From Chloroflexota bacterium (lineage in GTDB: Bacteria > Chloroflexota > Dehalococcoidia > JACPEP01), in assembly GCA_016183425.1 (NCBI GenBank), contig JACPEP010000008.1, positions 21,048 through 85,047 on the forward strand: 64,000 nucleotides of DNA. Reading direction: 5' to 3'. The position numbers and the translations under genes are program-made. This document shows positions 1,773-63,238 of this stretch, piece by piece. The notes below the pieces were generated by a model. The model worked only from the letters and a program-made list of their open reading frames with translations. It did not search any database and had not been told where the DNA came from. Numbering within the stretch: position 1 is the first letter of the stretch; each line of letters begins with the position of its first letter.

Positions 1773-1808
1773 AGGTTGCCGGTGGGCTAGAAAAGGCGAG
1801 GCCTTCTT

Positions 1809-2375: not shown

Positions 2376-2387
2376 AGACAGCGCCTC

Positions 2388-2577: not shown

Positions 2578-2601
2578 ACTACCAAAGCTACTGCGACAGC
2601 A

Positions 2602-3026: not shown

Positions 3027-3057
3027 CTTTCACCTCCATGTGGTTCCAGGGCGAACA

Positions 3058-3222
3058 ATAAGCCACTCATATTCTACCCCTTCGCCGCTCCCACCACCAC
3101 CCGCCGCTCCTCCTCCGTGAGGCCGTAGAGGTCGTAGACCAGGGCGTCTATCTCCCTATCGGTGCGGGCGATCTCCCGCTCCATGTCTTCCTTCTCGCTT
3201 TGGGGGAGGGAGTTATCTGCCC
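3058..3222 (-). repeat. Copy B of the RM-gene 3' terminus (variant C-terminus ...EEERRVVVGAAKG*)
   Basis: ~90% nucleotide identity to 3698-3860. It is followed by the HicB cassette. Confidence 0.8.
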
Positions 3223-3380
3223 CGTAGCAGGGCGATGAGTTCTTGACGAGACATCTCTATGTCTCGTCCAATCTTGAGCAAGATACCTGGCCCCAGGACC
3301 TCCCCGAGGTGCACTGGCACTACCGTGGCTCTGCCATCGGGGTGTTTCAGGAAAACATGGCTTCCTCGTTGGCGCATCAC
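3213..3380 (-). pseudogene. hicA: hicA remnant in frame with the upstream hicB, separated by an in-frame TAG
   Basis: Hand translation of the minus strand after the TAG at 3381-3383 gives VMRQRGSHVFLKHPDGRATVVPVHLGEVLGPGILLKIGRDIEMSRQELIALLRGR*. The HicA N-terminal helix (LPALTGAEVVRALEQAGF) is encoded at the end of the hicB ORF. Confidence 0.65.
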
Positions 3381-3653
3381 CTAGAAGCCGGCCTGCTCCA
3401 ATGCTCGGACGACCTCGGCTCCAGTAAGGGCAGGGAGTCGGCTCACACAGCCACCCGCTGTACACCCACCAGTTCCAGGGGCTCCCTCCTCTTCGCCCTG
3501 CACCTCCAGGCACAGCCGGATAGCTTCCTTGATGCGCTCAAGGAGCTCGTCCAGGGAGCGGGCCTGGGTATGGCAGCCGGGCAAAGAAGGGACACTGGCT
3601 ACCAGGTAGCCCTCCTCGTCCCGCTCGATAACCACCGTGAACTCTTGTGCCAT
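3381..3653 (-). CDS. hicB: HicB-like antitoxin whose reading frame runs into the HicA N-terminus
   Basis: MAQEFTVVIERDEEGYLVASVPSLPGCHTQARSLDELLERIKEAIRLCLEVQGEE, then a G/A-rich linker, then LPALTGAEVVRALEQAGF, then TAG. Confidence 0.65.
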   Translation of the reverse strand: MAQEFTVVIERDEEGYLVASVPSLPGCHTQARSLDELLERIKEAIRLCLEVQGEEEGAPGTGGCTAGGCVSRLPALTGAEVVRALEQAGF

Positions 3654-3679
3654 GGCTCGCCTCCTTCGCTGCCTCTATT

Positions 3680-6601: not shown

Positions 6602-6654
6602 CCTTTTTCGACCATCCCCCTGGCCCCCTTCCTGGCCAGGAAGGGGGTGGTAAT

Positions 6655-6723
6655 GTATCTGGGGGACACCCCCAGACCCCCGTCAAAGGGGGCTTCGCCC
6701 CCTTGCAACCCCCGTTATTAAAC
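6655..6723. repeat. Right copy of the ~68-bp double-hairpin element, 54 bp upstream of the RM start codon and 5 bp after the coxL stop
   Basis: gtatctgggggacacccccagacccccgtcaaagggggcttcgcccccttgcaacccccgttattaaac. It is an inverted repeat of 1624-1691. Confidence 0.8.
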
Positions 6724-6727
6724 AGTC

Positions 6728-18231: not shown

Positions 18232-19365
18232 TTAGCCATTGCTCCTCGATCCACCTGGTGCTTTAATCTCTTTGTCTACCTCTTCTAAGGCTTTCCCCAC
18301 ATCCAGTTCCAGGTATTGGGCCAACTTGCCCAGGGAGATATGCCCTTCTCGATGGGCTTCAAAAGCCAGGGAAACGTACCCTTCTCCGAGGCGTCGCCGC
18401 CATCTAGGTGACTTCGACCCTCGATGGGGTCCTTGCTTTCTTTGCTCCCACTCCAATATTAGAGAGTCAATGATTCCCGCTTTAAGCAGCTCTAATTCTT
18501 TCAGTCTTATTCCTACTGCCTCTAGACTAACTCCGTAGCGATTAGCGAGCGTTCTCAATTGGTTCTCCGTAGGCACTGTGCCTGCAAGCCCCACGCGCTC
18601 ATGGAATTCCCTTTCCAGATCGGTGGCTGGCATCAGGAACACGGCGGCGAATTTGTTGGCTAATAATTCCTCCGATACCTCTACCTTCTTCAGATCGCAT
18701 ACGGTGGACGGATCGGAGCGTAAACGGTGGGCGTATTCGTGGGCTAGTGTAAAGCAACGGCGGCCGGGGTTGTCCTTAGCATTGATAAGGATGCAAGGCC
18801 CATACTCTTGATGCCACCAGGATATCCCTGCCACCTCGTTTCCTGGCACATCGAGTTCAAAGATCCTCACGCCCTGGCTAGTTAGAAGGGTACGCAAATT
18901 CTTAATCGGCCGTTCTCCCTGCTTCAAACGTTGCCTTTCGTGACTGGCCATTTCCTCAGGGCTTAAACCATTAGTCAATCTCTGAACGAGTATTTTTCTT
19001 TGCTTCCCTAAAAGGGCTTCTAATTCACTCTGAGCACGACACAATTCTTCGAAGCGAACAAGGACGTTTCGCACCCCCAAAGGTAGGTCGCTTATCCCTT
19101 TTCTCTGAACCAAACGGAAGTTGAGCTGCTCAGGCGGCGGCCTTTGGCGAAGAAAATAGTCAGTGCTACGCTGGTAAAGTTCAGCAAGCTTCCACAAGTC
19201 CTCCACCGAAGGTTGTGAGTAACCTTTCTCCCAGGCGTATAGGTCTTCAGGGTTTATCCCCAGGTCTTTCGCTGCTTCCTCTAGACCCAGCCCCAAGCTT
19301 TCTCTAGCTTGGCGAAGCTGGCTTGAGAGAATCAGTATTTTATCTACGGCGGCCACAACAATCAC
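18232..19365 (-). CDS. XRE-family HTH fused to an ImmA/IrrE-family (DUF955) Zn-metallopeptidase
   Basis: N-terminal HTH (LRQARESLGLGLEEAAKDLGINPEDLYAWEKG) and HEXXH (HEYAHRL) in the middle. Confidence 0.7.
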   Translation of the reverse strand: MIVVAAVDKILILSSQLRQARESLGLGLEEAAKDLGINPEDLYAWEKGYSQPSVEDLWKLAELYQRSTDYFLRQRPPPEQLNFRLVQRKGISDLPLGVRNVLVRFEELCRAQSELEALLGKQRKILVQRLTNGLSPEEMASHERQRLKQGERPIKNLRTLLTSQGVRIFELDVPGNEVAGISWWHQEYGPCILINAKDNPGRRCFTLAHEYAHRLRSDPSTVCDLKKVEVSEELLANKFAAVFLMPATDLEREFHERVGLAGTVPTENQLRTLANRYGVSLEAVGIRLKELELLKAGIIDSLILEWEQRKQGPHRGSKSPRWRRRLGEGYVSLAFEAHREGHISLGKLAQYLELDVGKALEEVDKEIKAPGGSRSNG

Positions 19366-48722: not shown

Positions 48723-50084
48723 TTGATACGTGAAGAAATAGAGCAAGCCCTCAAGGGTCACGACGCCGACTATGTGGAACTGCGCCTGGAAGAGGGAGAG
48801 ACAACCCGCCTCTCCTATCGGGGCCGCGAGCTGGAGGACATCGGCCGAAATGCCAGCCGGGGCGGCAACGCCCGAGCTCTGATGAAGGGGGGGTGGGGGT
48901 TCGTCTCCTTCAACGACCTCTCCAACCTTAGAGACAAGGTGGCCCTGGCGGTGAGCCACGCCCGCCGGGTAGGGAAGGAGGAAAGTCGCCTCGCTCAGAT
49001 CGCACCGACGGTAGAAACAGTGCCCGCAGAAGTGAAGAAGGACCCCCTGCTCATCCCTCTCGCAGAAAAGAAGCGCCTCCTGGATGAGTACAACGAAATT
49101 CTATGGTCTAGCCCCCGGCTCCAAACCTCGTCCATTAGCTACTCCGATGGCCGCCGTCGAACTGTCTTCGCCAACTCCGAGGGAGCCTACATAGAGCAGA
49201 GCCGGGTGGATGTAGTGGCCCGCCTAGCGGCAGTGGCCCGAGACGGCGACGTTGTGGAACAGGCCGGGCTAAGCCTGGGCAGCCAGGGGGATTACGCCGT
49301 CATCGAGGGCCTTCATCAGCAGGTTAAGGAGTTGGGCCAACAGGCGGTAACCCTCCTCTCCGCGCCCCAGGTAAAGAGAGGCGAGTACACCGTCATTCTG
49401 GACCCCGTGCTGGCGGGGGTTTTCATCCACGAGGCCTTCGGTCACCTATCAGAGGCCGATTTCCTTTACGAGAATCCCAAGCTGCAGGAGGTACTGGTTC
49501 TTGGTCGCACCTTTGGCCAGCCCCACCTGAACGTTGTGGATGGCGCCGCCGTGCCCGGTCTGCGGGGCAGCTACCATTACGACGACGAGGGGGTGCCTGC
49601 CACCAGAACCTATCTCATCCGAGAAGGCGTCCTGGTGGGACGGCTGCATTCCCGGGAGACAGCCGCCAAAATGGAAGAACCCCCCACCGGCAACGCCCGG
49701 GCCGTGGACTATCGCTTCCCTCCCATTGTCCGCATGACCAACACCTTCATCGAGACGGGAACGGCGACGCTACAGGACATGATGGCCGAGATACCAGAAG
49801 GACTTTATGTCAAGAACTGGTTCGGCGGCACCACCAGCATCGAAATGTTCACCTTTTCCGCCGGGGAGGCCTACATGATTCGCAACGGGAAAATAGCCGA
49901 ACCCCTACGCGGGGTGGTTCTTACCGGCAATGTTTTCACCACCCTGGCCAACATCGACGCCATCGGCAATGACCTGGACATGAACCAAGGGGGTGGCTGC
50001 GGGAAGGGGGGGCAGGCGCCCCTTCCCGTCTCCAACGGAAGTCCCCACATCCGAATTCGAAACTGCCTGGTGGGAGGACGGTAG
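48723..50084 (+). CDS. tldD: TldD/PmbA-family metalloprotease (TldD-like)
   Basis: TldD/PmbA family signature over its length (HEAFGH). Confidence 0.75.
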   Translation: MIREEIEQALKGHDADYVELRLEEGETTRLSYRGRELEDIGRNASRGGNARALMKGGWGFVSFNDLSNLRDKVALAVSHARRVGKEESRLAQIAPTVETVPAEVKKDPLLIPLAEKKRLLDEYNEILWSSPRLQTSSISYSDGRRRTVFANSEGAYIEQSRVDVVARLAAVARDGDVVEQAGLSLGSQGDYAVIEGLHQQVKELGQQAVTLLSAPQVKRGEYTVILDPVLAGVFIHEAFGHLSEADFLYENPKLQEVLVLGRTFGQPHLNVVDGAAVPGLRGSYHYDDEGVPATRTYLIREGVLVGRLHSRETAAKMEEPPTGNARAVDYRFPPIVRMTNTFIETGTATLQDMMAEIPEGLYVKNWFGGTTSIEMFTFSAGEAYMIRNGKIAEPLRGVVLTGNVFTTLANIDAIGNDLDMNQGGGCGKGGQAPLPVSNGSPHIRIRNCLVGGR

Positions 50085-51391
50085 TGGAAGAAGAGATACT
50101 TAGGCAGGCGATGCAGGTGGCCGAAGCAGCCGAGGTCTACTGGGTATCTTTCCAGGAGACGCCGGTCTCTTTTGAAGCCAACCGTTTGAAATATCTCACC
50201 ACCCGACAGAGCAGCGGCGTGGCTTTACGAGTCATCGTCAACGGCCGTATCGGCCACTCGGCCACCAACCACCGGGAAGACATGGCGGCACTGGTATCCC
50301 GGGCGGTGGAGGTAGCCCAGTTCGGCCCGGAGGCCCACTTTGAGCTGCCTGGCCCTCAGACCTACCCCTCAGTAGAGGCCTACGACCCCCAGACAGAGGC
50401 CTTTCCCGTAGACGCCATGGTGGAGTTGGGCCAGGGTCTCATTGACGGTGTACGGGCTCACGCTCCGGATTTGCAGTGCGAGGCTGGGGTAGCCAAGGAG
50501 ACGCTGACTCTGCACATCATCAACTCCCGAGGCAGCCAGGCGGAGTATCACAAAAGCGTCTTCAGTGCCAGCTTGTGGGGCACTCTGGTTCAGGATACGG
50601 ATATGCTCTTCGTGGGCGACGGCGAGACCCTATGCCAGCCGATGACCGACGGCCTGGTGATCATCGAAAGAGTGCTGCGTCAACTGGAGCTGGCACAAAG
50701 AACGGCCACCGTATCCTCAGGCGCGCTGCCCGTCATTTTCACCCCTCGGGGGGTTCGCAGCGCCTTGGTAGCGCCCCTTTACGCCGCCTTCAGCGGGCGA
50801 GTGGTCTTGCAAGGTGCCTCCCCCTTAGGGGGACGCCTGGGCGAGACGGTGTTCAGCCCCCACTTGACCCTGTGGGACGACCCCACCCTTCCCCTCTCCC
50901 CCGGTGGCCGCCCTTTTGATGACGAGGGTATTCCCACCCAACGAACCCCCTTAGTGGCAGCGGGGGCAGTAGCCAACTTTCTCTACGACCTACAAACAGC
51001 CGGTCTGGCGGGAACCCGAAGCACCGGCAGCGCCCGTCGCTCTTTGGGAGGGCTGCCCTCCCCCTCTGTAAGCACCCTCATCGTGGATGAGGGAGAGGCC
51101 ACCTTCCCGGACATGGTGGCTGATATGAAGGAAGGGCTGGTCATAGAGGATCTCATGGGCGCCAGCCAGGGAAACGTCCTGGGGGGCGACTTCGGCGGCA
51201 ACGTTCTCCTGGGCTACAAAGTGGAGGCAGGAACTATAGTGGGACGAGTTAAGGATACTATGGTCGCCGGCAACGTGTACAAAGTCCTCAGCTCCCTCCG
51301 GGGAATTGGACAAGAAGCCCGATGGGTGGGGGGCCATCTGAGAACACCGGCACTTTATGGCGACAGTATTAGCGTATCCACCAAAAGCTGA
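50084..51391 (+). CDS. TldD/PmbA-family protein (PmbA/TldE-like partner)
   Basis: Family similarity. Adjacent to and overlapping tldD by 1 nt. Confidence 0.7.
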   Translation: MEEEILRQAMQVAEAAEVYWVSFQETPVSFEANRLKYLTTRQSSGVALRVIVNGRIGHSATNHREDMAALVSRAVEVAQFGPEAHFELPGPQTYPSVEAYDPQTEAFPVDAMVELGQGLIDGVRAHAPDLQCEAGVAKETLTLHIINSRGSQAEYHKSVFSASLWGTLVQDTDMLFVGDGETLCQPMTDGLVIIERVLRQLELAQRTATVSSGALPVIFTPRGVRSALVAPLYAAFSGRVVLQGASPLGGRLGETVFSPHLTLWDDPTLPLSPGGRPFDDEGIPTQRTPLVAAGAVANFLYDLQTAGLAGTRSTGSARRSLGGLPSPSVSTLIVDEGEATFPDMVADMKEGLVIEDLMGASQGNVLGGDFGGNVLLGYKVEAGTIVGRVKDTMVAGNVYKVLSSLRGIGQEARWVGGHLRTPALYGDSISVSTKS

Positions 51392-51406
51392 TGGGGACAC
51401 CACAGC

Positions 51407-52315
51407 ATGGAAGAGCTTCTGGCGAAGTTGAGAGATGGCGACCCGGTAGCGCCTTCTCAGCTCATGCTCCTCTCTGAGCTATCGGAAGAGGGATGCCGTC
51501 TCTGGCAGCAAGAGTGGCCCTACCTGCCCCAAGAGCGCCGGCAACAGCTGGTCAGAACCCTCGCCCAATTGGGCGAGGACTGTATCGAATCGGATTTTGG
51601 CCGCGCCTTTCACATCATCCTGGAAGACGAGGACGAAACAGTGGTCTTATGGGCTATCAAGGGCCTTTCCTATTGCGAAGACCGGTGGCTCATTGGAGCC
51701 CTGGTGAAGCTGCTCCACAATGACGCTCGCCCGTCGGTGCGTGCGGCAGCGACCGCCGCCATGGAGCGCTTCGCCCTTCTGGCGGCGCTGGGCAAGCTCT
51801 CTCCGGAAGATGAGACAAGCGTGGCAGTAGCACTGATTTCCACCACCCAGAATCAGAAAGAGACCGAAGAGGTCAGGTGCCAGGCCCTTCGAGGAGCCGG
51901 AGCCTTGGAATTGTCCCGAGTTAAAGAGATTATCCACCAAGCATATCAAAGCTCGTCCCTGCTCCTTCGGCTGAGCGCAGTGTACGCCATGGGCATGAAC
52001 TGCAACCCCTATTGGCTGCCTACCCTCATCGCAGAGCTGGATAGCCCCCACCAGGAGATGCGCCAAGAGGCCGCCCGAGCCCTGGGGGAATTGGAGGATG
52101 AACGGGCCGTACCCCACCTGGCCCTCCTTCTCCAGGATCCCTACTCCCAGGCCAGGGAAGCGGCCTTTCAAGCCTTGAGCAACATCGGCGGCGAAGAGGC
52201 CAAACAGCTCCTGCTTCTCTGCCTCAAGGACCCATCCCCTCAAATTCGTGCCGCCGCACGCCGAGCCCTTCGGCAGCTCAACACCAGGGACAACCTTTCA
52301 TCACTCTTTAGCTGA
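51407..52315 (+). CDS. HEAT-repeat (PBS-lyase-type) protein
   Basis: Repeated ...VRAAAARALG...D...VR helical repeats. Confidence 0.55.
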   Translation: MEELLAKLRDGDPVAPSQLMLLSELSEEGCRLWQQEWPYLPQERRQQLVRTLAQLGEDCIESDFGRAFHIILEDEDETVVLWAIKGLSYCEDRWLIGALVKLLHNDARPSVRAAATAAMERFALLAALGKLSPEDETSVAVALISTTQNQKETEEVRCQALRGAGALELSRVKEIIHQAYQSSSLLLRLSAVYAMGMNCNPYWLPTLIAELDSPHQEMRQEAARALGELEDERAVPHLALLLQDPYSQAREAAFQALSNIGGEEAKQLLLLCLKDPSPQIRAAARRALRQLNTRDNLSSLFS

Positions 52316-52369
52316 TCACTTCCGGAGAGGCCGGGCACGCTTTATCTTTGACCATGCAGGTGGAAAGCA

Positions 52370-52654
52370 TCAAGCCGTTTTCCCCTCCTGTCTGAGGTGC
52401 TCCAGAATCCACATTCTAACCAGAGTGGTAGGGCCGATGCCTTGCTCGTGGGCCTTTGCCCGTAACATCGCTAACGTCTCTTTGTCCAGTCTAATATTGA
52501 GTCCCTCCGACAGATTCTTGGCAAAGCGGGCTCGCACCGTTTTGAACTCATCCTGATAATCGGCCATATCGTGGGTATCAAACCACTCGGCTTCTTCTTC
52601 CCGGCTTTTAAACTCCGGGATTCTGCTTTTTGTTTCCTGTTCTTTCTTGCTCAT
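52370..52654 (-). CDS. brnA: BrnA-family antitoxin (CopG/RHH-like)
   Basis: IPEFKSREEEAEWFDTHDMADY...LRAKAHEQGIGPTTLVRMWILEHL is the BrnA pattern. 4-nt overlap with brnT. Confidence 0.7.
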   Translation of the reverse strand: MSKKEQETKSRIPEFKSREEEAEWFDTHDMADYQDEFKTVRARFAKNLSEGLNIRLDKETLAMLRAKAHEQGIGPTTLVRMWILEHLRQEGKTA

Positions 52655-52941
52655 TCGGTTTCACCCCCCCGTTCATTGGCATAGATCGCTCGCTCACGTC
52701 GGCTGCTCGGTCTGGCAGTCACCGGATAATACACTCCTCCCGGTGAAGATTCGGCGTCCAAGACAACAGTGAGTATCCTTCCGGATAGGGTTGGCCCGAA
52801 AACGAGCGAGCGTCCCTTTTTGCCGACTTGAACCACCGGCTCCCCGTGGCAGACCTCCTCCACCTCTTCTGGGGTCACTCCATGTCGAGCAATATGGGCC
52901 ACATTGCAAGGATCCCAGATGAGACGGTGAATCACCAGCAT
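52651..52941 (-). CDS. brnT: BrnT-family (DUF497) ribonuclease toxin
   Basis: FIWDPxKAxxNxxKHGV-type N-terminus (LIWDPCNVAHIARHGVTPEEVEEV). Confidence 0.7.
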   Translation of the reverse strand: MLVIHRLIWDPCNVAHIARHGVTPEEVEEVCHGEPVVQVGKKGRSLVFGPTLSGRILTVVLDAESSPGGVYYPVTARPSSRRERAIYANERGGETE

Positions 52942-53201
52942 GGCTTAATTGTATCACAATGCGACACAATATCAATCCCTAAAACAGAGACCTAGAAAAA
53001 GAACAGGGCCTACGGGCAACTGAGGTTCAACATCTAGCTCAGACGCACTTAGAATCCCCCCGACGTACTATCTTGATTACTGCCTCACGCGGCCTCCTTT
53101 TGCCTGTCGACATGGCGCATGTCCGATTTGACAACGGCGTAACGCTGTGCTAACATATGCTTACCATGAATGTTGGTACAACTTGTATTAGGAGTATTAC
53201 C

Positions 53202-53459
53202 ATGAAAGAACTTGAAACAACCCTGACGCGAAAAGGACAGGTTACCATCCCCCAGGAAGTGCGCCGAGCTTTGGGCCTGAAGCCCCGCGACAAAGTGCTC
53301 TTCGAGATTGAAGGAGAGGCCGCCAAGATAAGGCCGGCCGTGTCTAAGCTCCTTGCTGGCTACGGGGCTGTAGTACCCAGGAAGAGACCTGAGGACTTCC
53401 GCAAGCTACGTGAGGAGTTTGAGGAGGGAGTTGCAGAAGAGGTAGTCTCGGAGACTTAA
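53202..53459 (+). CDS. AbrB/MazE-type (SpoVT/AbrB fold) antitoxin, VapB-like
   Basis: MKELETTLTRKGQVTIPQEVRRALGLKPRDKV. AGGAG upstream. Located upstream of the PIN gene. Confidence 0.65.
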   Translation: MKELETTLTRKGQVTIPQEVRRALGLKPRDKVLFEIEGEAAKIRPAVSKLLAGYGAVVPRKRPEDFRKLREEFEEGVAEEVVSET

Positions 53460-53465
53460 GGTACC

Positions 53466-53903
53466 ATGCCGCTACGGTTTCTTGATACCAATGTCCTGAT
53501 ACGCTACTTCACTCGGGACGATGAAGAAAAGGCCCGGCAAGCCCTGGCCTTGTTGGCCCGGGTTGAGCGCGGCGATGAGAAGGTCATCACGTCACCCATG
53601 GTCATCTTTGAGACCGTTTTCACTTTGCAGAAGGGCTATCAAGTTCCCCGGAGCGATATTCGGCGCCTCGTCTCGGCCATAATCGCCCTCAGGGGCCTGC
53701 AACTGCAGCGCAAAAATCTCTACTATCGAGCTTTCGACCTCTACGTAGACCACAACATTTCTTTTGCCGATGCCTACAACGCTGCCTATATGGAAGAGCG
53801 TGGAGCCACTGACATCTACACCTGGGACACCGACTTTGACAAGCTCGAAGGCGTCGCCCACCTTGAGCCCCAGGAGGAGAGGCTTTCATCTGCAGGCAAT
53901 TGA
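53466..53903 (+). CDS. vapC: PIN-domain toxin VapC
   Basis: FLDTNVLIRY...(D)...E...D..D acidic residues: DTN, FETVF, FADAYNAA, TWDTDF. Confidence 0.75.
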   Translation: MPLRFLDTNVLIRYFTRDDEEKARQALALLARVERGDEKVITSPMVIFETVFTLQKGYQVPRSDIRRLVSAIIALRGLQLQRKNLYYRAFDLYVDHNISFADAYNAAYMEERGATDIYTWDTDFDKLEGVAHLEPQEERLSSAGN

Positions 53904-54005
53904 GGCTGCCTATGTGAACCTTTTCTGTCCTCCCTAATGTCTACAAAATGCCTAATTCGATATGATGTGCATTTAACAGTATAATGCGCTTATAAGGGAG
54001 GTACT

Positions 54006-54314
54006 ATGTCAGCACGAAGAATGTCCGCGCGGGAAGCCAGAGCCAACTTTGGCGACCTGTTGGGTCTAGTTTACTACACTAAGGAGGCTGTGATCATCGA
54101 GAAAAAGGGGCGACCCTTTGCCGTCGTTGTCAGCCCACAGGACTACGAAGCTCTCCAAAAGGAGCAAGAACGCGCCTGGTCGGTTGTCGATCAAGTTCGA
54201 GAGCGCAATGCTGATAAAGACCCCGACGAGGTGCTCACCGACGTGACAACGGAGGTCGAAACCGTCCGTCAAAAGCTGTATGAAGAAAAGCAGGCTCCTA
54301 AGCGCCGTCGTTGA
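54006..54314 (+). CDS. Phd/YefM-family antitoxin
   Basis: MSAREARANFGDLLGLVYYTKEAVIIEKKGRPFAVVVSPQDYEAL is the Phd/YefM N-terminal pattern. Confidence 0.65.
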   Translation: MSARRMSAREARANFGDLLGLVYYTKEAVIIEKKGRPFAVVVSPQDYEALQKEQERAWSVVDQVRERNADKDPDEVLTDVTTEVETVRQKLYEEKQAPKRRR

Positions 54315-54738
54315 CACCAATCTGTTTGTCAGTGGCTTAATCCTGAAGCGCGGCTCTCCATACGAAATCGTCGAGGCATTACGCCGCGGCGATTTTACGT
54401 TGGTTATCTCAGAACCGATCTACACGGAATACACCCAAGTCCTGTCCCGCCCAAGGTTCGCTGAGCAATACGCCCTGACCCAAGAAGAAGTTGCTGACTT
54501 CTAATTCCTAATAGATACCATTGCTCTTAAGGTGACCCCCAGACGCCGACTCCCGGTCAGGGTGAGACACCAGAAAGATGAAGTGATTCTGGCGACTGCT
54601 CTGGGTAGGGCAAACTATCTCGTGACTGGGGATGACGACTTACTCTCCGTACGCGATCATGCAAAGCTAGGGCAACTGAAGATCGTCACGGCAAGGGAAT
54701 TCCTGGACCTCCTGAGAGAGGAACACACCGGAAACTGA
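54280..54738 (+). pseudogene. PIN-family toxin (TIGR00305-like) interrupted by a single in-frame TAA at 54502-54504
   Basis: The two ORFs 54280..54504 and 54532..54738 are in the same frame. Concatenated they read ...VVDTNLFVSGLI...EEVADF*FLIDTIALKV...DEVILATALGRANYLVTGDDDLLSVRD..IVTAREFLDLL, which is a full PIN domain. Confidence 0.65.
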
Positions 54739-54957
54739 TCCTCAAGTGGTACGAGTTTCAGATAGTGACTGCTTTCCTACTGGTCGCGGCAACAATATGC
54801 ACCTGGACGGCTACCAACCACACGCCCAAATGGTGGGTGGAGGAGGCCTGTTGACACGGTATTATGCTGGCAGTAGGATTTGGTCACCAACTAGCATCGG
54901 TCTCCGGACGAACAATGAATGGTCACCAGAGTCGGGAAAAACTGGAGCAGGGGTTAC

Positions 54958-57348
54958 ATGGCCAATCATATAAATGTCTTCTACGCCTACCCTTCTAAGC
55001 CAGAATCGTTGGATGAAACCATCACCAAAGCCCTTGATGAACTCAAAAAAGAGGTTCAAATTCGAGAAGCTGGCATTCGCTTCAAGCAGTGGAATAATTT
55101 GTCCATTACGGGCAAGAAAATAGTCGGGGAGATAGTTCAAGCAATTGACCGTTCTGACATCTTCGCGTGCGATCTGACACATCGGAATTTGAACGTGGCC
55201 TTCGAACTTGGCTATGCTGTCGGTAAATTCAGGCGAGTATTCCTCTCCTTGGACACAACAATTCAAGACGCCTCTAAGGAGTACAAGCGGCTCTACACAG
55301 TAATCGTGGGCGTTGGCTATGCTGAATACCAAAATCATCGTGATCTTGCGTACGCTTTCCTGAACGATCATCCATGGACAACCCTCGATGAGCACTTACT
55401 TGGCGACATCTTTAGACGGCCGGTTCCGCGCCCTGAGCTACCAACCCTGCTATACGTGAAGCCCCCGCTGGAAACCGATGCAGTTATCGCAACGGCAGAA
55501 GGCCTACAGGGATCAATGTTCTCTGACTCCCTATTCATCGATGACCCAAGGGAGAACCCATCCCCGACGCTAGACTGGCACGCTAAAAAAATCCGTTTGG
55601 CCGACGCAGTTCTTGTTCATCTCCTGGCCGATAACCAGGAGCACGCACCCAGTCACAACGTCAAATCATCCTTTGTTGCAGGATTGGCTCACGGCCTTGG
55701 GAAGCCCGTTCTGATGTTGGCTCACACGCCATTTGATTGCCCGATTGACTACCAAGACCTCCTGAAGTCTCACCAAACAGCACAAAATTGCTGGAATCAT
55801 GTCGATAAGTGGCTCAGTCAGTTGAACCTACCCCGACGAAGATCGAGGCGAACGGCTCCAGAGGAGGCACGCACAAAACCGGGAGATCTTGAACTTCGAA
55901 ACCTGTCAATTGGTGAGCCGGTAGCAGAACATGAGCACCTGCGCCTCGATGAGTACTTCGTAGAAACAAGCGCCTATTATGAAGCTCTACAGGCCCAGAC
56001 GACGATCTTCGTAGGACGGCGGGGCACTGGCAAAACGGCAAACCTCATTGCTTTGCAGACGTCACTAGGAGAAGATAAGCGGAACCATGTTTGTACTGTC
56101 AAACCCGTTGGATATGAGGTTGATGGCTTCATCCGTGTGTTGCAGCAGAATTTGCACCGGGCCGAACGAGGGTACTTGGTAGAAAGCCTATGGAAGTTTC
56201 TCATTTACAGCGAACTGGCCTCCAGCGTGTTTAATGAGACTTCGGCTCGCCCTGCTTATCAAACCCGAACCCCCGACGAGACGAAGCTTGTTGAATATGT
56301 GGAAACCCACAGTGAGACACTTCGCCCTCCTTTTTCTCAGAGACTAGACCGGGCTGTTCGATCACTTATCGGCGTAGGGAGTTTAGCAGACGCAGAACAG
56401 CAGCGGGCGCGAATCAGTGAATTGTTGCACTCGTCAGAACTGCGCGATCTTCGCGACTTACTTGGGCGAGTTCTTGCCAGTCGCTCTAAGGTGGCAATCC
56501 TAATTGACAATCTGGATGAGCCGTGGCGACCTGGACATGAAATTGAATACCTTTCTGACTTGTTACTTGGACTACTGAAAGTAGGCCAGGACATAACTGA
56601 CGATTTTGAACGCCAGGATTATTGGCGCAAACGCGTTAATGTGTCGGTCACCATGTTCATACGGAGCGACATATTTGTCTACGTTAAGATGCTAGCGCCT
56701 GAGCAAGACAAACTGCCAATTCAGCGTATCGTATGGCATGACGAGTATCTCCTTTTGAAAGTCTTAGACGAGCGCCTGAAACACGCAGTGCCAAAGAGGT
56801 TTGATGCGCGCGATATTTGGCAACAGTTGTTTCCAGAAGAGGTGGTAGGTCTACCAACACGAGAGTTCATCGTGCGCAACACTTTGCACCGCCCGAGAGA
56901 CGTAATTTACCTGGTTAGAGAGGCTATGGCAAGAGCGGTCAACCAAGGGCGTCAGGTGGTCACTCCTGAGGATTTCCTCAACGCCCGACAAAAATACTCG
57001 CAGTACGTGTTTAACTCGATTCTGGCAGAGGATGACCCACGTAGAGGCAAACTTGAGGCGGTTCTATACGAATTTGCCGGTGCCCCTAGAGAAATGTCTC
57101 GAAGCCAGGTTGCATCCCGCATTAAAAGATCAGGAGTCGACGAATCGGATGTCGATTTCTATTTGAACCTTTTGTGTGATGTGAACTTCCTCGGTATTCA
57201 GACAACTAGTGGGTTCAGCTTTGCATCGGACGAGGATGATCGTCGCACGTTGCGGTCAGTGGCCGGAACGCTTGCGGTCGAAAAAGGCTGGGGGGAGGAG
57301 TCATACAGCGTCAATGCCGCGTTCCACCAGGTGCTTCAAATCGACTAG
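54958..57348 (+). CDS. ~797-aa protein with two tandem N-terminal nucleoside-2-deoxyribosyltransferase/TIR-like (flavodoxin-fold) domains fused to a P-loop NTPase (Walker A GRRGTGKT, Walker B VAILIDNLDE) and a C-terminal helical region. Candidate defence NTPase.
   Basis: Domain 1 has ...DRSDIFACDLTHRNLNVAFELGYAVGKFRRVFL. Domain 2 has ...ADAVLVHLLADNQEHAPSHNVKSSFVAGLAHGLGKPVLML. Both echo the NDT motif D..TxFExGyA.alGKPV. Walker A and B lie at residues ~400 and ~540. The gene is ~47% GC in a ~63% GC genome. Confidence 0.6.
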   Translation: MANHINVFYAYPSKPESLDETITKALDELKKEVQIREAGIRFKQWNNLSITGKKIVGEIVQAIDRSDIFACDLTHRNLNVAFELGYAVGKFRRVFLSLDTTIQDASKEYKRLYTVIVGVGYAEYQNHRDLAYAFLNDHPWTTLDEHLLGDIFRRPVPRPELPTLLYVKPPLETDAVIATAEGLQGSMFSDSLFIDDPRENPSPTLDWHAKKIRLADAVLVHLLADNQEHAPSHNVKSSFVAGLAHGLGKPVLMLAHTPFDCPIDYQDLLKSHQTAQNCWNHVDKWLSQLNLPRRRSRRTAPEEARTKPGDLELRNLSIGEPVAEHEHLRLDEYFVETSAYYEALQAQTTIFVGRRGTGKTANLIALQTSLGEDKRNHVCTVKPVGYEVDGFIRVLQQNLHRAERGYLVESLWKFLIYSELASSVFNETSARPAYQTRTPDETKLVEYVETHSETLRPPFSQRLDRAVRSLIGVGSLADAEQQRARISELLHSSELRDLRDLLGRVLASRSKVAILIDNLDEPWRPGHEIEYLSDLLLGLLKVGQDITDDFERQDYWRKRVNVSVTMFIRSDIFVYVKMLAPEQDKLPIQRIVWHDEYLLLKVLDERLKHAVPKRFDARDIWQQLFPEEVVGLPTREFIVRNTLHRPRDVIYLVREAMARAVNQGRQVVTPEDFLNARQKYSQYVFNSILAEDDPRRGKLEAVLYEFAGAPREMSRSQVASRIKRSGVDESDVDFYLNLLCDVNFLGIQTTSGFSFASDEDDRRTLRSVAGTLAVEKGWGEESYSVNAAFHQVLQID

Positions 57349-57485
57349 CCATGCAAAGTCGTCATTGTTGTATGCAGCCTGGGAATGGATCGGGGGCCTA
57401 GAATCATCAGATGCCTTATGAATCATTTCACGGCTTGACCTAACTGGCGCCTGTGATATAATAAGAACGGGCCAAGCCCAAGCCT

Positions 57486-57815
57486 ATGGCTTGCACAAAG
57501 CAACAAGACATTAACAGCCCTTCGCTAGACTTACTCCCGTGGTTCCAACTCCTGCCTCTGGATTACCTCATTCGACTTGCCTTCACGTCTTTCCAAGCCC
57601 TTTCGGTAACCTTGTCCCACCTGTGGCAATCTACTGGCTTGTACGAGGTTATGGACTACGATGTCACGTTGGACCTCCGCGACAAGGATGGGACACGGGC
57701 CTATTACATCAAAAGGAAAAAGGTGCGGCTTCTCCAAGACCACGTCAGAGCCATCGACGACCACGCTTGGGGCGACGGCAATCCTGTGGCCCGCTATCGC
57801 GAGACACTACCTTAA
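57486..57815 (+). CDS. Hypothetical protein (109 aa), 5' of the integrase homology and in another frame
   Basis: ORF only; no motif recognised. Confidence 0.25.
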   Translation: MACTKQQDINSPSLDLLPWFQLLPLDYLIRLAFTSFQALSVTLSHLWQSTGLYEVMDYDVTLDLRDKDGTRAYYIKRKKVRLLQDHVRAIDDHAWGDGNPVARYRETLP

Positions 57816-58672
57816 CCTTCAAAGAGGCCCTAGAGAGCTTTTTGCGAGCTCTAGAGGGCAAGAAGAGGAGTCCGTTAACCCGACGGACCTACGAGACCGA
57901 CGCCGGCCAGTTAATCGAGTGGCTGGAGCAGAACACCTACGCCACCACTCCCGCCAGCGTGGAGAGGGCTGACATCACCGAATACCTGGCCTATCTAGGG
58001 CAACAGGGTATCACAGGAGTCTCCCGGGCCCGCAAGCTTGCGGCCATCCGGGAGTTGTTCCGCTTCCTTGAGGTCCACGACTACATCGCCAAGAGTCCAG
58101 CCGAGGGGGTGGAAACCCCCAAAAAAGAGAGGGATGGCAGGGCCTACCTTCGGCCCGAGGAGTATTGGGCGATGCTGGCCCAGGCCAGCGCCCACCCCAG
58201 GGACTACGCTATCCTCCAGGTCTTTTTGCAGACAGGGGTAAGGGTCTCGGAGCTTTGCGATCTCAGGCTTTCCGATATTGACGCTGAGGGCCGCAGCCTA
58301 AAGGTGCGGGGCAAGGGCCAGGTTCAGCGGGAGATCGAGATGGAGAAAAAGGGCCTGGAGGCCCTCAAGAACTACCTGAACGCCCGACCCCAGACGCCGG
58401 ACGAACATCTCTTCCTGAACAAAGACTGCGAGCCCATCTCAGAGAGGATGGTTCGCAAGATCGTAGCCAAATACAAGACCAGGGCTGGAATTACCTAGAA
58501 GGTCAGCTGTCATTCCCTAAGACATACCTTCGGCACTTATAAAGCGGAGAAAGGCGTCTCACCCTTCCAACTCCAACAGTGACTTGGCCATGCAAATCTG
58601 AACACCACCCAGATCTACGTCCACCTGGGGAGGCAGAACGCTCAAAAGGTCATGGAGGCTACCAGCCTGTGA
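57810..58672 (+). pseudogene. Tyrosine recombinase/integrase (XerC/D-like) with two in-frame stop codons (TAG 58496-58498, TGA 58580-58582) and no recognisable own start
   Basis: One continuous frame reads ...KEALESFLRALEGKKRSPLTRRTYETDAGQLIEW... (core-binding domain) ...ISERMVRKIVAKYKTRAGIT*KVSCHSLRHTFGTYKAEKGVSPFQLQQ*LGHANLNTTQIYVHL (catalytic R, HxxR and Y present). Confidence 0.7.
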
Positions 58673-58882
58673 GGAGAGAGAGGGTTTTTCAAAAGTCACG
58701 GAGAGGGCGGCCCCGCCAGGCAAGTCCGGCTGAGTTCGATGCTGGCGTGCTACGCTTGCTGGCATGGGTTCAGGACCATGCGAAGAGCAACCCCGTCGCC
58801 TAGCCTAATGGTTTGTATCCGCGTGGTATAATACTGAGCGGGCACCAAGACTGCCTATAATCACTATTGAGAGGAGGTGGGG

Positions 58883-59191
58883 ATGATGCCAAGAGAGCAA
58901 CATATGAAAACTATCGATATCAGTAACGTCCCTGAACTGTTGCGCCTTGTCGAAGAGGTGCGCTCTACCAACGAGCCTCGCATTCTGCGTCAGGAGAACC
59001 AGGACGTAGCGATTGTGCGACCGCTGAAACGGCCAAGCCGCCCACGGATTCTACGGGGCAAGCCATTTACCAAGGACGACCCGATCTGGAACTTACAGAG
59101 AATTGGAAGCTCGGGACTGACCGACGTTTCCGAGAACACCGACAAGTACCTCGCCGAGGCGTATCTTGACACACACGACCAGAAACGATGA
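58883..59191 (+). CDS. Putative antitoxin (Phd/YefM-like N-terminus) of the downstream PIN toxin
   Basis: GGAGGTG RBS. ...MKTIDISNVPELLRLVEEVRSTNEPRILRQENQDVAIVRPL..., ...DKYLAEAY tail. ATGA overlap with the PIN gene. Confidence 0.5.
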   Translation: MMPREQHMKTIDISNVPELLRLVEEVRSTNEPRILRQENQDVAIVRPLKRPSRPRILRGKPFTKDDPIWNLQRIGSSGLTDVSENTDKYLAEAYLDTHDQKR

Positions 59192-59628
59192 AATCTCGCG
59201 CCCCAACTCGTCAAAAGAGAAGGGTTCTGATTGACACCGGCGCGTTTTATGCCTTTGCGGATGCAATCGATGCGCACCACCGGGAATCGGTCGCCATCTT
59301 CACTGACCTTCGGGACAAAGGGGATTACCTGCTCACCACCAGCTTCATCGTTGCCGAAACCCATGCCCTTCTTCTGAATCGCCTCCATCGTCAGGCGGCA
59401 ATCCAGTTCTTAAAAGACATGAAGGAAGGAAGCTATATCGCAGTAATCTGGGCCACACCCAACGATGTCAAGCAAGCGGGACAGACCATCTACCGCTACG
59501 AGGATAAAAAGTTTACTCTGACCGATGCTACCAGCTTCGCAGTTATGGAGCGGCTGGGAATCCAATACGCATTCACTTTTGACCGAAACTTCGCGCAGCA
59601 CGGCTTAAACGTCCTTGCTGCCACCTAG
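59188..59628 (+). CDS. PIN-domain toxin (VapC-like)
   Basis: VLIDTGAFYAFAD...E (AETHALL)...D (TLTDATSF)...FD PIN acidic residues. Confidence 0.7.
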   Translation: MKSRAPTRQKRRVLIDTGAFYAFADAIDAHHRESVAIFTDLRDKGDYLLTTSFIVAETHALLLNRLHRQAAIQFLKDMKEGSYIAVIWATPNDVKQAGQTIYRYEDKKFTLTDATSFAVMERLGIQYAFTFDRNFAQHGLNVLAAT

Positions 59629-59828
59629 CACGAGCATCCTCTCAAGCCTTTCCAGTTCTGGGATTACTATGTCACCGAAAAGATGAGGAGAAAGGCCCCA
59701 GGAGACAATGGCCACTCTTATATAAGCCGTTGGTCAAGGTAACCACCGTCGCAGCCTAGCGGTTTGCTTCACCTGCAGAAAGATTCCCCAGGCGAGTACC
59801 ACAATAACGGACCTTGATTGAAATCACA

Positions 59829-60527
59829 TTAGAGGCCAGACGAATCTTTCACTGCATGCGGCCATTGTCTCTCAGGCGTTTTGTCACCCTGCCACATCCA
59901 CTTCCCCTGGACACGCTTGTAGCTACTCTCAAATGGGCGCTTGAAAAGGTCATCGTACGCTATAATCAGGATATCGTTTTCTTGAAGGTCTATATCACGC
60001 GCCACCATCGACTGGCCTACATCTGCACCCCATTGGACAGCGTACTCTTCATCACCAGCGGCAAGATGTCGGACGCTGCTACGAGATGGATCGACGAGTA
60101 GCTCGGGCTTGTTTTCCCCTTGGTCTGGTCTTGACCTGTTCAGCCGCAGGTAGATGTTAAGGGCTGGCCCGACTCCAACGTTTCGAACCTTTAAGTAAGG
60201 GTAATCTTCTTGCCTCTCATCAAGGACAGATTTGCGGACAGTGTATTTGTTCTGGATGCATTTTCCCCAATTCGCTGGAATAACAATAGGGCGATGACCA
60301 TCCATGCGGGTCTGTTCAGTCACATTGGCCAGATCGTACGCATACTTGGCGTACAGTATAGCTGCCACTGCGGCTGCCAACAGCGCTGACACCTGAACGG
60401 CCGCCCAGTCGATTCGGTTCCCCCCGTCGCGAGTGATGACCCATTCTGTCACCAGTCCCAACACAAAAACGACGGAGGGATAGACCAGGACAGCCCATGA
60501 CCCTAATCGTGCGTGTAACGCTCTCAT
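59829..60527 (-). CDS. Hypothetical membrane-anchored protein (2 N-terminal TM helices + soluble domain), ~50% GC
   Basis: ORF with hydrophobic N-terminal segments. No motif recognised. Confidence 0.35.
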   Translation of the reverse strand: MRALHARLGSWAVLVYPSVVFVLGLVTEWVITRDGGNRIDWAAVQVSALLAAAVAAILYAKYAYDLANVTEQTRMDGHRPIVIPANWGKCIQNKYTVRKSVLDERQEDYPYLKVRNVGVGPALNIYLRLNRSRPDQGENKPELLVDPSRSSVRHLAAGDEEYAVQWGADVGQSMVARDIDLQENDILIIAYDDLFKRPFESSYKRVQGKWMWQGDKTPERQWPHAVKDSSGL

Positions 60528-60602
60528 TTAAGTGGATATTCCTCTTTTTTATCGCTCGTCTGATATAATAACCGTGGGACGGCACCTTAGCAAATGCCAA
60601 CT

Positions 60603-61093
60603 TTATGTCCGAGAAAGAACTACCTGAACATCACGAACAACCACCAGACCGCGAAGAAGAAACCCCCGGTTACTGGCAGGCCGCTCAAGCAACTTGGCAC
60701 TCATAGCCTGAATGTGCTGGGGGCCAAGTTTTCTCAGGCGTGTTGATCCTAAAGACGGAATCAAGTACAAGCGTACATACCCCTCGTAGCCTAGAAAAGT
60801 GCGGCGTTTAACACGGGGCTTGACCACATTATTTAGCCAGTGCCTGAGGTATTGCTCAGTAGTCCAGCTAGAGATGCCCAAGGTAATCCCAACCTGTAAC
60901 TCATGCTGGGCCTGCACCAACTGCTCCTGAACTTCCCGGCGAGTTTTAGCGTAAAAATAGCGGAACTTCTTCTTGCGTCCTCATATCCCAAAAACAGCCG
61001 AGCCTCCCACCGCCCGTCAGGTTCCCTCTTACGAATGGTGCCGTCGCCATTGCCTCTTCTGCCCACAGACTCCCGCCCCCTAAACGTTTGCAC
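60603..61093 (-). pseudogene. Decayed tyrosine-integrase N-terminal remnants (AP2-like arm-binding domain + core-binding SAM-like fragment), immediately 3' of tRNA-Arg
   Basis: GNGDGTIRKREPDGRWEARLFLGYEDARR (integrase arm-type N-domain) and ...TTEQYLRHWLNNVVKPRVKRRTFLGYEGYVRLYLIPSLGSTRLRKLGPQHIQ (core-binding) lie in different frames. The catalytic domain is absent. Confidence 0.65.
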
Positions 61094-61198
61094 CTATTGT
61101 ACACTGAAGCCCGATTGTGGTCACAAAAGTGGTCACCGGTGAGATTCAACCCCATAAAGAGCCTGTTGCAGCCGAAATTAGGTTTGAAATTTGAAAAC

Positions 61199-61274
61199 TG
61201 GTACCCCTGGGGTGACTCGAACACCCGACACGCGGTTTAGGAAACCGCTGCTCTATCCACTGAGCTACAGGGGC
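61199..61274 (-). tRNA. tRNA-Arg (anticodon CCT) with encoded CCA
   Basis: Hand-folded cloverleaf. Acceptor GCCCCTG/CAGGGGT, D-stem GCTC/GAGC, anticodon stem GCGGT/ACCGC with loop TTCCTAA (anticodon CCT), T-arm GGGTG-TTCGAGT-CACCC, 3' ACCA. Confidence 0.85.
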
Positions 61275-61453
61275 ATAAAAGAATCTCGTTACCCGTAGTA
61301 TAGCCCCCGGCTGCCTCAGCCGCAACCTTTGGCCCCATTGACATCAGGAGGCCCTTCCGATAGTCTTCTACGAAGATAGGGATTGCCTGGATAATACCTT
61401 TGTCGAGGAAAAGATCGTGGTCTGCCCCCATGAGATCTAGAAAGGAGTGACCC

Positions 61454-63238
61454 GTGAGAGCTACGCCCCCTAAAGACGCTGCCACCGTCCGCCAGGCGGA
61501 GTACGGCTCCGATATTATCGTTGACCTAATTCGGGCCCTGGACATACCATACGTGGCCTTCAACCCCGGTTCCACCTTCCGCTGGATCCACGACTCCCTG
61601 GTCAACTATGGGAACAACCATAAACCAGAGATCATCCAATGCTGCCACGAGGAGACATCGGTAGCCATCGCCCACGGCTACGCCAAGGCCACGGGCCATC
61701 CTATAGTAGCCATGGTTCATAACGTTGTGGGTCTCCAGCACGCCGCCATGGCTATCTACAATGCCTGGTGTGATCGGGCACCAGTAATAGTCATGGGGGG
61801 CACCGGACCCCTGGACGTCACCAAGCGTCGCCCTGGAATCGATTGGGTCCACACCGCCTCAGACCAGGGTCATCTGGTCCGCGACTTTGTAAAATGGGAC
61901 GACCAACCCCACAGCCTGACCAGCGTCCCTGAATCCTTCCTTCGCGCTTACCAGGCAGCCGTTACCCCACCCCAAGGACCCGTCTATCTTTGCTACGACG
62001 CCGAACTTCAGGCCTCCCCTATCCCTCCGGAATTCTCCTTCCCCGACGTCGCTAACTACTCCCTTCCGGCATCCATCGCCCCCCACGGCCCCCTCCTCTC
62101 CCAGGCCGCCAAACTCCTGATTGAGGCGCAAAACCCCGTCATCGTCGCCGATGGTGTGGGAAGAAATCCGTCAGCAGTGGCGGATTTGGTGAGCCTGGCC
62201 GATCTCCTGGCCATCCCCGTTATCGACGGCGGCAGCCGCTTCAACTTCCCCTCCTCCCACCCCTTAGACATGACGGGAGCCAGCGGCGATATCCTGCCCC
62301 AAGCCGACGTCATCCTCGCCTTGGAGGTGGAAAACCTCTTCGGGGCCCTGAGCGGCCCCACCGCTTCGGGCGAGCACCAAAATATCATCGCACCCCAAAC
62401 CAAGGTAATCCACATCTGCTTGGGACATCTCCTCAGCCGCGGTTGGGCTGCCGATTGCCAGCGCCTCCAGCCGACTCATCTCACCATCACCGCCGATACC
62501 GCCCTTGCCCTCCCTCAACTGATAGACATATGCCGGGAAATGCTGAAATACGACGATAAAATCCGCCAGGGCTACACCCTCAGACGCTCTCGTCTCAGCC
62601 AGCAACACCAGGAACTAAGGAGCCGGTGGGAGCGGGAGGCCGAAGGAAGGGGGGAGGAAATGCCCATTTCGCCACCCCGCCTCGCCAGCGAGGTCTATAA
62701 AATCATTAAAGACAGAGACTGGGTACTGGTCAACGGTGGACTGACCGGCTGGGCCAGGAGACTATGGGACTTCTCCCAGCCCAACCAGTTCCTTGGTGGC
62801 AGCGGAGGGCAGGGGCTAGGCGATGGCATCGGCGCCGCCATAGGAGCCGCCTTGGCTTTAGCCCATGACGGCAAGCTTTGCATAAACCTGCAAGCCGACG
62901 GGGATCTCCTCTACTGTGCCACCGGCCTGTGGACAGCGGCCCACCACAGCATTCCCCTCCTAAATATAATGTTCAACAACCGTAGCTACTACAACTCCGA
63001 AAACCATGCCCTGGTTACCGCCCGCAGTCGGAATCGTCCCGAGGCTAACCGGGGTGTGGGCACCCGCCTTGAGGAACCCTTCGTGGACTTCGCCCAGCTG
63101 GCCCGCTCCTTGGGAGTGTACAGCGAAGGCCCCATAGAGGAGCCCGAGGCTATTGCCCCAGCCCTGAAAAGAGCCCTGCGTGTATTAGAGGTAGACAAGA
63201 AGCCAGCCCTGGTGGACGTGGTGACCCAGTCTCGATAA
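61454..63238 (+). CDS. Thiamine-pyrophosphate-dependent enzyme (acetolactate synthase / benzoylformate decarboxylase / sulfoacetaldehyde acetyltransferase-like family)
   Basis: N-terminal TPP_enzyme_N (...FNPGSTF...HEETSVAIAHGYAKATG) and a C-terminal TPP-binding GDG...N motif (GDGIGAAIG..., LQADGDLLY...NN). Confidence 0.7.
   Translation: MRATPPKDAATVRQAEYGSDIIVDLIRALDIPYVAFNPGSTFRWIHDSLVNYGNNHKPEIIQCCHEETSVAIAHGYAKATGHPIVAMVHNVVGLQHAAMAIYNAWCDRAPVIVMGGTGPLDVTKRRPGIDWVHTASDQGHLVRDFVKWDDQPHSLTSVPESFLRAYQAAVTPPQGPVYLCYDAELQASPIPPEFSFPDVANYSLPASIAPHGPLLSQAAKLLIEAQNPVIVADGVGRNPSAVADLVSLADLLAIPVIDGGSRFNFPSSHPLDMTGASGDILPQADVILALEVENLFGALSGPTASGEHQNIIAPQTKVIHICLGHLLSRGWAADCQRLQPTHLTITADTALALPQLIDICREMLKYDDKIRQGYTLRRSRLSQQHQELRSRWEREAEGRGEEMPISPPRLASEVYKIIKDRDWVLVNGGLTGWARRLWDFSQPNQFLGGSGGQGLGDGIGAAIGAALALAHDGKLCINLQADGDLLYCATGLWTAAHHSIPLLNIMFNNRSYYNSENHALVTARSRNRPEANRGVGTRLEEPFVDFAQLARSLGVYSEGPIEEPEAIAPALKRALRVLEVDKKPALVDVVTQSR

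Follow-up and report, generated by a model that had tools for sequence, protein, structure and literature searches.

A probable decayed island at tRNA-Arg(CCT) in a Chloroflexota genome, with toxin-antitoxin modules and a stand-alone NDT-like/AAA+ ATPase

Main finding and proposed history

We analysed a 64-kb stretch of the metagenome-assembled genome of an uncultured Chloroflexota bacterium (contig JACPEP010000008.1; hereafter the window) around a candidate genomic island, and the block at positions 52316-61198 (8.9 kb) is likely to be horizontally acquired DNA that entered the 3' part of a tRNA-Arg(CCT) gene by tyrosine-integrase recombination and has since decayed to an immobile island. We put the probability of this reading at roughly 0.7. 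The block lies directly 3' of the tRNA gene, has a deviant base composition and carries an integrase, now a pseudogene, near one end, while the flanking attL/attR direct repeats that also mark such islands are absent within the window. The initial annotation of this DNA had proposed an island at this tRNA, and that proposal is supported as a whole, as every component it named is present where it was placed.

According to the history that we infer from the sequence, an element with a phage-type integrase would have recombined at a core of ~45 bp reaching from the anticodon loop to the CCA, and the integration would have rebuilt the tRNA at attL and left the integrase gene adjoining it. Subsequent deletions would have removed the catalytic domain of the integrase and the distal attR, and mobility would have ended through deletions and point mutations with the loss of both integrases and of attR. 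The survivors would be self-stabilising or possibly selectable genes, namely the toxin-antitoxin (TA) pairs, a rare membrane protein and a stand-alone ATPase with a domain like those of nucleoside 2'-deoxyribosyltransferases (NDT) and an AAA+ module. The presence of a second, unrelated XerC/D-like integrase together with the uneven GC of the block suggests at least two acquisition events, and the island is probably a mosaic. It is one more case of a tRNA landing pad at which integrated DNA has decayed to TA modules and a few kept genes, here in a poorly sampled lineage of Chloroflexi. As such the island is an ordinary member of a well-known kind, and the ATPase family is the only part with some potential.

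Borders and composition of the block

The GC content of the whole window is 0.58, with 0.60-0.65 in the long core genes. It is 0.525 in the block compared to 0.590 across the remaining window, and equal-length windows in the other 52 kb never fall below 0.570. When two changepoints were fitted by likelihood without constraints over 46.5-64 kb, a low-GC segment was placed at 52290-61450 (0.525 vs 0.599), and the fitted borders match the stop of the core HEAT-repeat gene (52315) on the left and a point just past the tRNA on the right. The composition thus changes sharply at both proposed borders, and the GC at third codon positions (GC3) of the island genes is also lower, with a median of 0.59 for the open reading frames (ORFs) of the island vs 0.72 for 35 core ORFs (Mann-Whitney p = 9e-6). 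The lowest GC3 of the island, 0.53, belongs to the gene of the 796-aa ATPase. The exception within the island is the pseudogene of the second integrase (integrase-2), whose GC of 0.58 is host-like. The drop and the borders described in the initial annotation therefore hold, but its figures of ~45% for the minimum and ~63% for the flanks were overstated, as the lowest 500-nt windows in the island have a GC of 0.48-0.49 and the flanking genes 0.60-0.61.

The distal border of the island, near the changepoint at 52290, is a 54-nt spacer (52316-52369) that separates the stop codons of the HEAT-repeat gene and brnA. Reading of the sequence and repeat searches gave no att-like repeat in this spacer.

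The tRNA and the two integrase pseudogenes

The other end of the island is anchored by tRNA-Arg(CCT) at 61199-61274 on the minus strand, presumably the attL side. The gene is complete, with the CCA encoded (ARAGORN; Rfam tRNA, 65 bits), and it is the sole tRNA that ARAGORN detects in the window. The first position of the island, 61198, adjoins the 3' CCA at 61199. Located 3' of the tRNA, on the same strand and starting ~105 nt from it, is the integrase-1 pseudogene (60603-61093, minus strand), of which only the N-terminal arm-binding and the SAM_3 core-binding region are left, ~125 of ~380 aa. Frame A (61051-60974) translates to GNGDGTIRKREPDGRWEARLFLGYED, and after a frameshift near 60975 the three-frame translation continues in frame B as GRKKKFRYFYAKTRREVQEQL...SAKLLERPASNRG... 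until a stop at 60603. The rejoined remnant contains a Phage_int_SAM_3 domain (Pfam, E = 5e-11), and in tblastn 91% of its length aligns to the N-terminal parts of 183 phage tyrosine integrases (best match 39.7% identity, E = 2e-15). It corresponds to about residues 8-126 of one such integrase, from a mycobacteriophage, that is 378 aa long. When the intact 378-aa phage integrase was used as a query, only its residues 32-126 matched near the tRNA, at 60974-60693, and no remnant of the catalytic domain was found downstream, so that about one third of integrase-1 is left. As to the lineage of this integrase, the viral scan gave no match and the homologue search yielded four short hits only.

The integrase-2 pseudogene (57767-58672, plus strand) sits 2.5 kb deeper in the island and is of a different type, XerC/D-like instead of phage-type. 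It has SAM_1 and catalytic Phage_integrase domains (Pfam, E = 3e-21) and scores 141 bits with the NCBIfam XerC model, below the cut-off of 335 bits. A clean start codon is absent, and two in-frame stops (TAG at 58496-58498 and TGA at 58580-58582) fall within otherwise conserved motifs, GIT*KVSCHSLRHTF and QLQQ*LGHANLNTTQIYVH. With the TAA that interrupts one of the PIN toxin genes of the island (see below), three different stop codons are found, which indicates ordinary nonsense lesions; recoding of the in-frame stops was rejected, as TAA, TAG and TGA are all involved and the lineage uses the standard code. Both the tRNA and the state of the two integrases, the first frameshifted and deprived of its catalytic domain and the second interrupted by stops, had been described correctly in the initial annotation.

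Phage-type tyrosine integrases, for example those of the mycobacteriophage L5 type and the P4 type, insert DNA into the 3' halves of tRNA genes and give rise to tRNA-linked islands and cryptic prophages. The block resembles these in its position directly 3' of a tRNA, in the integrase beside the tRNA on the same strand, in its atypical GC and in its accessory cargo. The integrase-1 remnant has the place and orientation that are canonical for elements inserted at tRNA genes, and in the prophage record MW584211 the start of the integrase is, comparably, 180 nt from the prophage end. In contrast to such elements, both integrases are dead here, attR is not present, and phage genes for structure or replication are no longer found.

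tRNA-Arg(CCT) as an integration target in other genomes

The exact 73-nt tRNA-Arg is not present in the JGI metagenomes, and its 3' 31 nt were found in 27 JGI metagenome contigs. Twenty-one of the matches lie within a complete tRNA-Arg gene (20 CCT and 1 CCG). Six others are orphan copies of ~45 nt, which run from the anticodon loop (TTCCTAAACCGCGT...) to the CCA; five of these are in contigs L098, L106, L108, L116 and L118, and the sixth is a second copy (6268-6312) in L112, which also has a complete gene. In L112 the tRNA is separated by 1.4 kb from the orphan, which is a direct repeat of it. In L098 and L106 the sequence after the orphan resembles that after intact tRNAs in other contigs, as would be the case for attR, and in L108 the orphan is flanked by a 399-aa integrase and an unannotated 817-aa ORF with which the remaining genes start, as would be the case for attP. 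Two orphan copies are near related integrases; the integrase of L108 is 30% identical to the integrase-1 remnant, and that of L100, which stands beside a full tRNA, 29%. The orphan copies have the appearance of attR or attP sites from elements with tRNA-Arg(CCT) as their target, and together with the related integrases nearby they indicate that the 3' part of this tRNA is a genuine integration target in nature. By analogy, the lost attR of the island would have been a 45-nt copy from the anticodon loop to the CCA, as in known tRNA-linked islands, and this att core could be used for delimiting islands in related genomes. Contigs L112 and L107 have a common tRNA cluster (Arg, then Trp-Leu-Gly-Cys), and the insert after tRNA-Arg is 1.4 kb in the former and ~8 kb in the latter.

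Recovery from independent assemblies and comparison with relatives

The junction between the HEAT-repeat gene and brnA and the whole island were recovered at 99.98-100% identity in the Logan assemblies of four runs, in which four independent contigs span this left junction. As the island and its junction recur in independent samples, the island is real and linked to the core on the left. In the k=31 Logan assemblies (contigs L002, L003 and L123) the island forms a contig of its own (52526-61228) that ends 30 nt inside the tRNA, which shows that the adjacency of the island and the tRNA 3' end is also real, whichever 5' continuation is correct; the break on the tRNA side results from a 31-mer that is common to other organisms. 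Two flank contigs of different runs both end at 52553, inside brnA, for which a paralogue, a strain variant or chance are possible reasons. Contig ends were not used as a sign of strain heterogeneity, as one of them (L124) is a Nextera adapter.

The closest non-self homologue of the HEAT-repeat protein is 45% identical. In three distant relatives (HEAT identity at most 45%) the order TldD-PmbA-HEAT is kept, the genes after HEAT vary between the relatives (acetyltransferase and MaoC genes, or others), and no tRNA-Arg is found near HEAT. The core thus ends with the HEAT-repeat gene and synteny breaks at the island, although a comparison at this distance is no empty-site test.

Weighing the origin of the block

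Several observations weigh against acquisition by integration at the tRNA. The drop in GC is moderate, 6-7 points, and there are further low-GC patches elsewhere in the window, so that composition alone is not decisive. A repeat search of the window found neither a direct nor an inverted copy of the tRNA 3' part. In blastn-short (word size 7) the tRNA 3' part gave only chance matches of 9-13 nt, all outside the island, and the best Smith-Waterman score of its 3' 50 nt against 50000-61150 was 20, with a shuffle mean of 20.8. The 45-nt core of the orphan copies was not found in the window either. No distal repeat had been found by eye in the initial annotation, and in the computational searches none rose above chance. 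Moreover, no genome close enough to reveal an empty site or another occupant was found by the GTDB scan, the HEAT homologues, the JGI tRNA search or the integrase homologues. The GTDB scan was made with the thiamine pyrophosphate (TPP)-dependent enzyme encoded beyond the tRNA and gave matches of at most 57% identity in unrelated phyla and without synteny, and no record of the exact TPP protein was found. Finally, only the window itself backs the link between the tRNA 5' part and the TPP gene, as the independent contig stops 30 nt into the tRNA.

The strongest competitor is piecemeal accretion, which we consider unlikely. According to this, only the ~0.6-1.6 kb by the tRNA would come from targeted integration, and the TA modules, the ATPase and the XerC/D-like gene would have arrived separately by other routes, for instance illegitimate or homologous recombination at a permissive gap that separates core operons. 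The heterogeneous GC of the island, its two unrelated integrases and the lack of internal att copies dividing it into sub-elements would agree with this, as would the ATPase, which elsewhere is a lone gene among housekeeping genes with no integrase or tRNA nearby. However, the stretch of low GC is unbroken and its end coincides exactly with the tRNA, and for DNA abutting an integrase remnant a tRNA-anchored tandem integration is the simpler explanation. Between tandem tRNA-targeted integrations and piecemeal accretion, the data fit both alike.

It is considerably less probable that the block is ancestral, with a lower GC that stems from the type of its genes and sequence (short TA genes, pseudogenes, intergenic DNA, weak selection). 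Lower GC is indeed frequent in TA genes and pseudogenes, the drop is modest, the att repeat is absent from the window and a comparator genome is lacking. A purely native origin is nevertheless unlikely because of the two integrase pseudogenes, which are hard to account for without mobile DNA, and because of the low GC3 of the ATPase gene, an intact gene of 2.4 kb (0.53 vs the core median of 0.72). The ATPase also has a 74%-identical homologue in another context, and no homologue of the neighbouring core HEAT protein exceeds 45%, so that the ATPase has closer homologues in other lineages than its neighbour does, and the relatives do not have these genes after HEAT. An artefact of assembly or binning, by which an island belonging elsewhere was joined to the tRNA/TPP side through a conserved tRNA k-mer, would agree with the separate k=31 contig ending at a 31-mer that occurs in other organisms, but it is highly improbable given the four independent contigs across the HEAT-brnA junction and the 3' 30 nt of the tRNA on the island contig itself.

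The 796-aa ATPase

The largest cargo gene (54958-57348, plus strand; 54958 is most likely the position of its start codon) encodes a 796-aa protein that matches the NCBIfam model NF047389 (P-loop ATPase, Sll1717 family) with 278 bits, the cut-off being 75, over model positions 1-436 of 454. The AlphaFold model, which was built on 50 homologues, has a pLDDT (predicted local distance difference test) of 87 and a pTM (predicted TM-score) of 0.83. In this model residues ~330-796 are predicted to form an ORC/Cdc6-like AAA+ module with a C-terminal helical/winged-helix region, whose Foldseek matches include Orc1, Cdc6 and SSO1545 (E ~1e-6). The lysine of its Walker A motif (GTGKT) is K359. A separate model of residues 1-300 (pLDDT 94) has two flavodoxin-like subdomains, which make up a domain of residues 1-290. 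Among compact Foldseek matches, this N-terminal domain is closest to DNPH1/Rcl and nucleoside 2'-deoxyribosyltransferases (probability 1.0, TMt up to 0.71), and the top match overall is TIR-STING. Across 51 sequences the motif D72-x-T74-x2-N77-x-N79-V-x-F-E83-L-G-Y-A shows no or hardly any variation, and we take D72...E83 to be positionally equivalent to the Glu motif of NDT enzymes; the Pfam NDT profile (PF05014) scores 22.5 bits, under the cut-off of 28.8. The label NDT/TIR-NTPase given in the initial annotation is thus right in substance, and the models and Foldseek make it more exactly a tandem NDT/DNPH1-like domain with an ORC/Cdc6-like AAA+ ATPase. As NDT/DNPH1 enzymes work as dimers, the tandem arrangement may be an intramolecular pseudo-dimer.

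Among the candidates scored, 653 homologues were found at E <= 1e-10, with 48-74% identity and nearly all ~795 aa long. They stand alone, and the genomic context was different for each one examined. In a Chloroflexi metagenome-assembled genome (L122), which has the 74%-identical homologue, the gene follows nuoA-dnaN. In L090 it lies between amidase and ProRS genes, in L089 its neighbours are HerA-like and OLD-family genes, in L091 IS66 and an AAA_15 gene are nearby, and in L120 and L121 it stands amid metabolic genes. Such a distribution is characteristic of a mobile accessory function encoded by a single gene. In addition, PHROG 13260 matches the protein at 1e-31, and a 50.7-kb viral contig (L125, IMGVR_UViG_3300048598_000585) has a full-length relative at 6001-8337 with 36% identity, which indicates that the family is occasionally borne by viruses or proviruses.

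A role in defence is plausible for this protein. In some nucleotide-targeting defence effectors an NDT/DNPH1-like or TIR domain is combined with an NTPase sensor by fusion or pairing; examples are retron-associated NDT effectors (PMC7736814) and TIR-STING (PDB 9lmq, 7un8). Like these effectors, the 796-aa protein has an N-terminal domain with a predicted NDT/DNPH1 fold that matches TIR-STING and an invariant Glu in the FELGYA motif, and this domain is fused to an AAA+ module that could, judging from the model, be a sensor or oligomeriser. Unlike the known effectors, it has no match in PADLOC and its Pfam NDT match stays under the cut-off, its ATPase is of the ORC/Cdc6 kind instead of STAND, no retron or cyclase accompanies it, and the contexts of the family are mixed and only sometimes defence-like. 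A search of PADLOC-DB v2 with six island proteins (the ATPase, the 232-aa, 104-aa and 109-aa proteins and two PIN toxins) gave no match; the sole defence-related signal for the ATPase is a match of the P-loop only to NCBIfam DS41_1 (46 bits, cut-off 370 bits). No paper was found in the literature on the Sll1717 family. As a tentative and rather doubtful proposal, the protein could on its own make up an immune or abortive-infection system that has gone unrecognised, in which the AAA+/winged-helix part would sense foreign nucleic acid or protein and oligomerise, and would thereby activate an N-glycosidase-like pseudo-dimer that destroys nucleotides or NAD-type cofactors. If this were true, the island would have been kept because of this gene. 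The family is in any case widespread and unannotated, with more than 650 homologues and the architecture of a nucleotide-targeting defence protein.

Toxin-antitoxin modules and small genes

Four putative type II TA pairs are located in the island, of which three are apparently intact and one is apparently broken. The most distal module of the island is BrnTA (52370-52941), in which the gene of the BrnT toxin (52651-52941, minus strand) overlaps by 4 nt with that of the BrnA/CopG-type antitoxin (52370-52654, minus strand). The antitoxin matches Pfam CopG_antitoxin at E = 1.5e-13, and the toxin matches BrnT_toxin at E = 2e-6 with 28 bits, which is below the cut-off of 34.5 bits but spans the full profile. 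The next pair (53157-53903) is apparently intact and consists of an AbrB/MazE-fold antitoxin (ORF from 53157, called start 53202, plus strand; Pfam MazE_antitoxin E = 3e-10) and a PIN/VapC toxin (53466-53903, plus strand; Pfam PIN E = 1e-16), both of which are also called as genes in contig L001. In the broken pair a Phd/YefM antitoxin (54006-54314, plus strand; Pfam) is followed by a PIN_3 toxin pseudogene (54280-54738, plus strand) with one in-frame TAA at 54502-54504; when rejoined, the toxin covers positions 2-113 of the 115 in the Pfam profile at E = 5e-17. The fourth pair is formed by a 104-aa antitoxin candidate (58877-59191, plus strand), for which Pfam gave no family, and, with a 4-nt overlap, a PIN/VapC toxin (59188-59628, plus strand; Pfam PIN E = 1e-11) that has the acidic PIN residues. 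Pfam therefore matches both partners in three pairs and the toxin only in the fourth, in line with the four pairs listed in the initial annotation. Promoter-like sites precede the brnTA, abrB-PIN and phd-PIN_3 operons.

Type II TA modules stabilise mobile DNA in TA-rich accessory regions, such as superintegron cassettes and integrative and conjugative elements. The island resembles such regions in having four TA operons within 8.9 kb, and by analogy the modules may have helped to retain it. It differs from superintegrons in that there is no integron structure and no attC sites, and one of its toxins is already inactivated.

A 232-aa ORF (59829-60527, minus strand) stands where the C-terminus of integrase-1 was lost. 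It is predicted to encode a membrane-anchored protein of a rare unnamed family, of which a search of 1.84 billion clusters yielded only 15 distant representatives at E <= 1e-3, and it has in common with these homologues hydrophobic N-terminal helices and a conserved C-terminal domain. No family was found for it in Pfam, NCBIfam, PHROG or PADLOC, and the earlier description of a membrane protein to which no function could be assigned thus stands. Directly upstream of the integrase-2 pseudogene is a 109-aa ORF (57486-57815, plus strand), which is called as a gene in independent contigs and for which no family was detected in Pfam or PHROG. The best promoter-like site of the island lies ahead of it at 57435-57462, with 11/12 matches and an extended -10 element (TTGACC, 16-nt spacer, TGnTATAAT).

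Other genes in the window

The gene of the TPP-dependent enzyme (61454-63238, plus strand), which is located beside the tRNA, has native GC. Its homologues among the GTDB species genomes are at most 57% identical, and the best ones come from a scatter of groups (Tectomicrobia/Entotheonella, Binatia, Thermodesulfobacteriota and others), which suggests that the gene has spread horizontally at an older date.

A second patch of lower GC, with a defence flavour, occupies positions 1-6601 of the window and contains an Eco57I/MmeI-like type IIG restriction-modification enzyme (3680-6601, minus strand), a fragment of a TaqI_C specificity domain (146-754, minus strand) and a DUF3800-IX RNA (Rfam RF02968; 1514-1573, minus strand). 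Amid core genes, a gene with a helix-turn-helix (HTH) domain and an ImmA/IrrE-like Peptidase_M78 domain (18232-19365, minus strand) has a GC3 of 0.52, the lowest of the 35 non-island ORFs tested, and it may be another small insertion.

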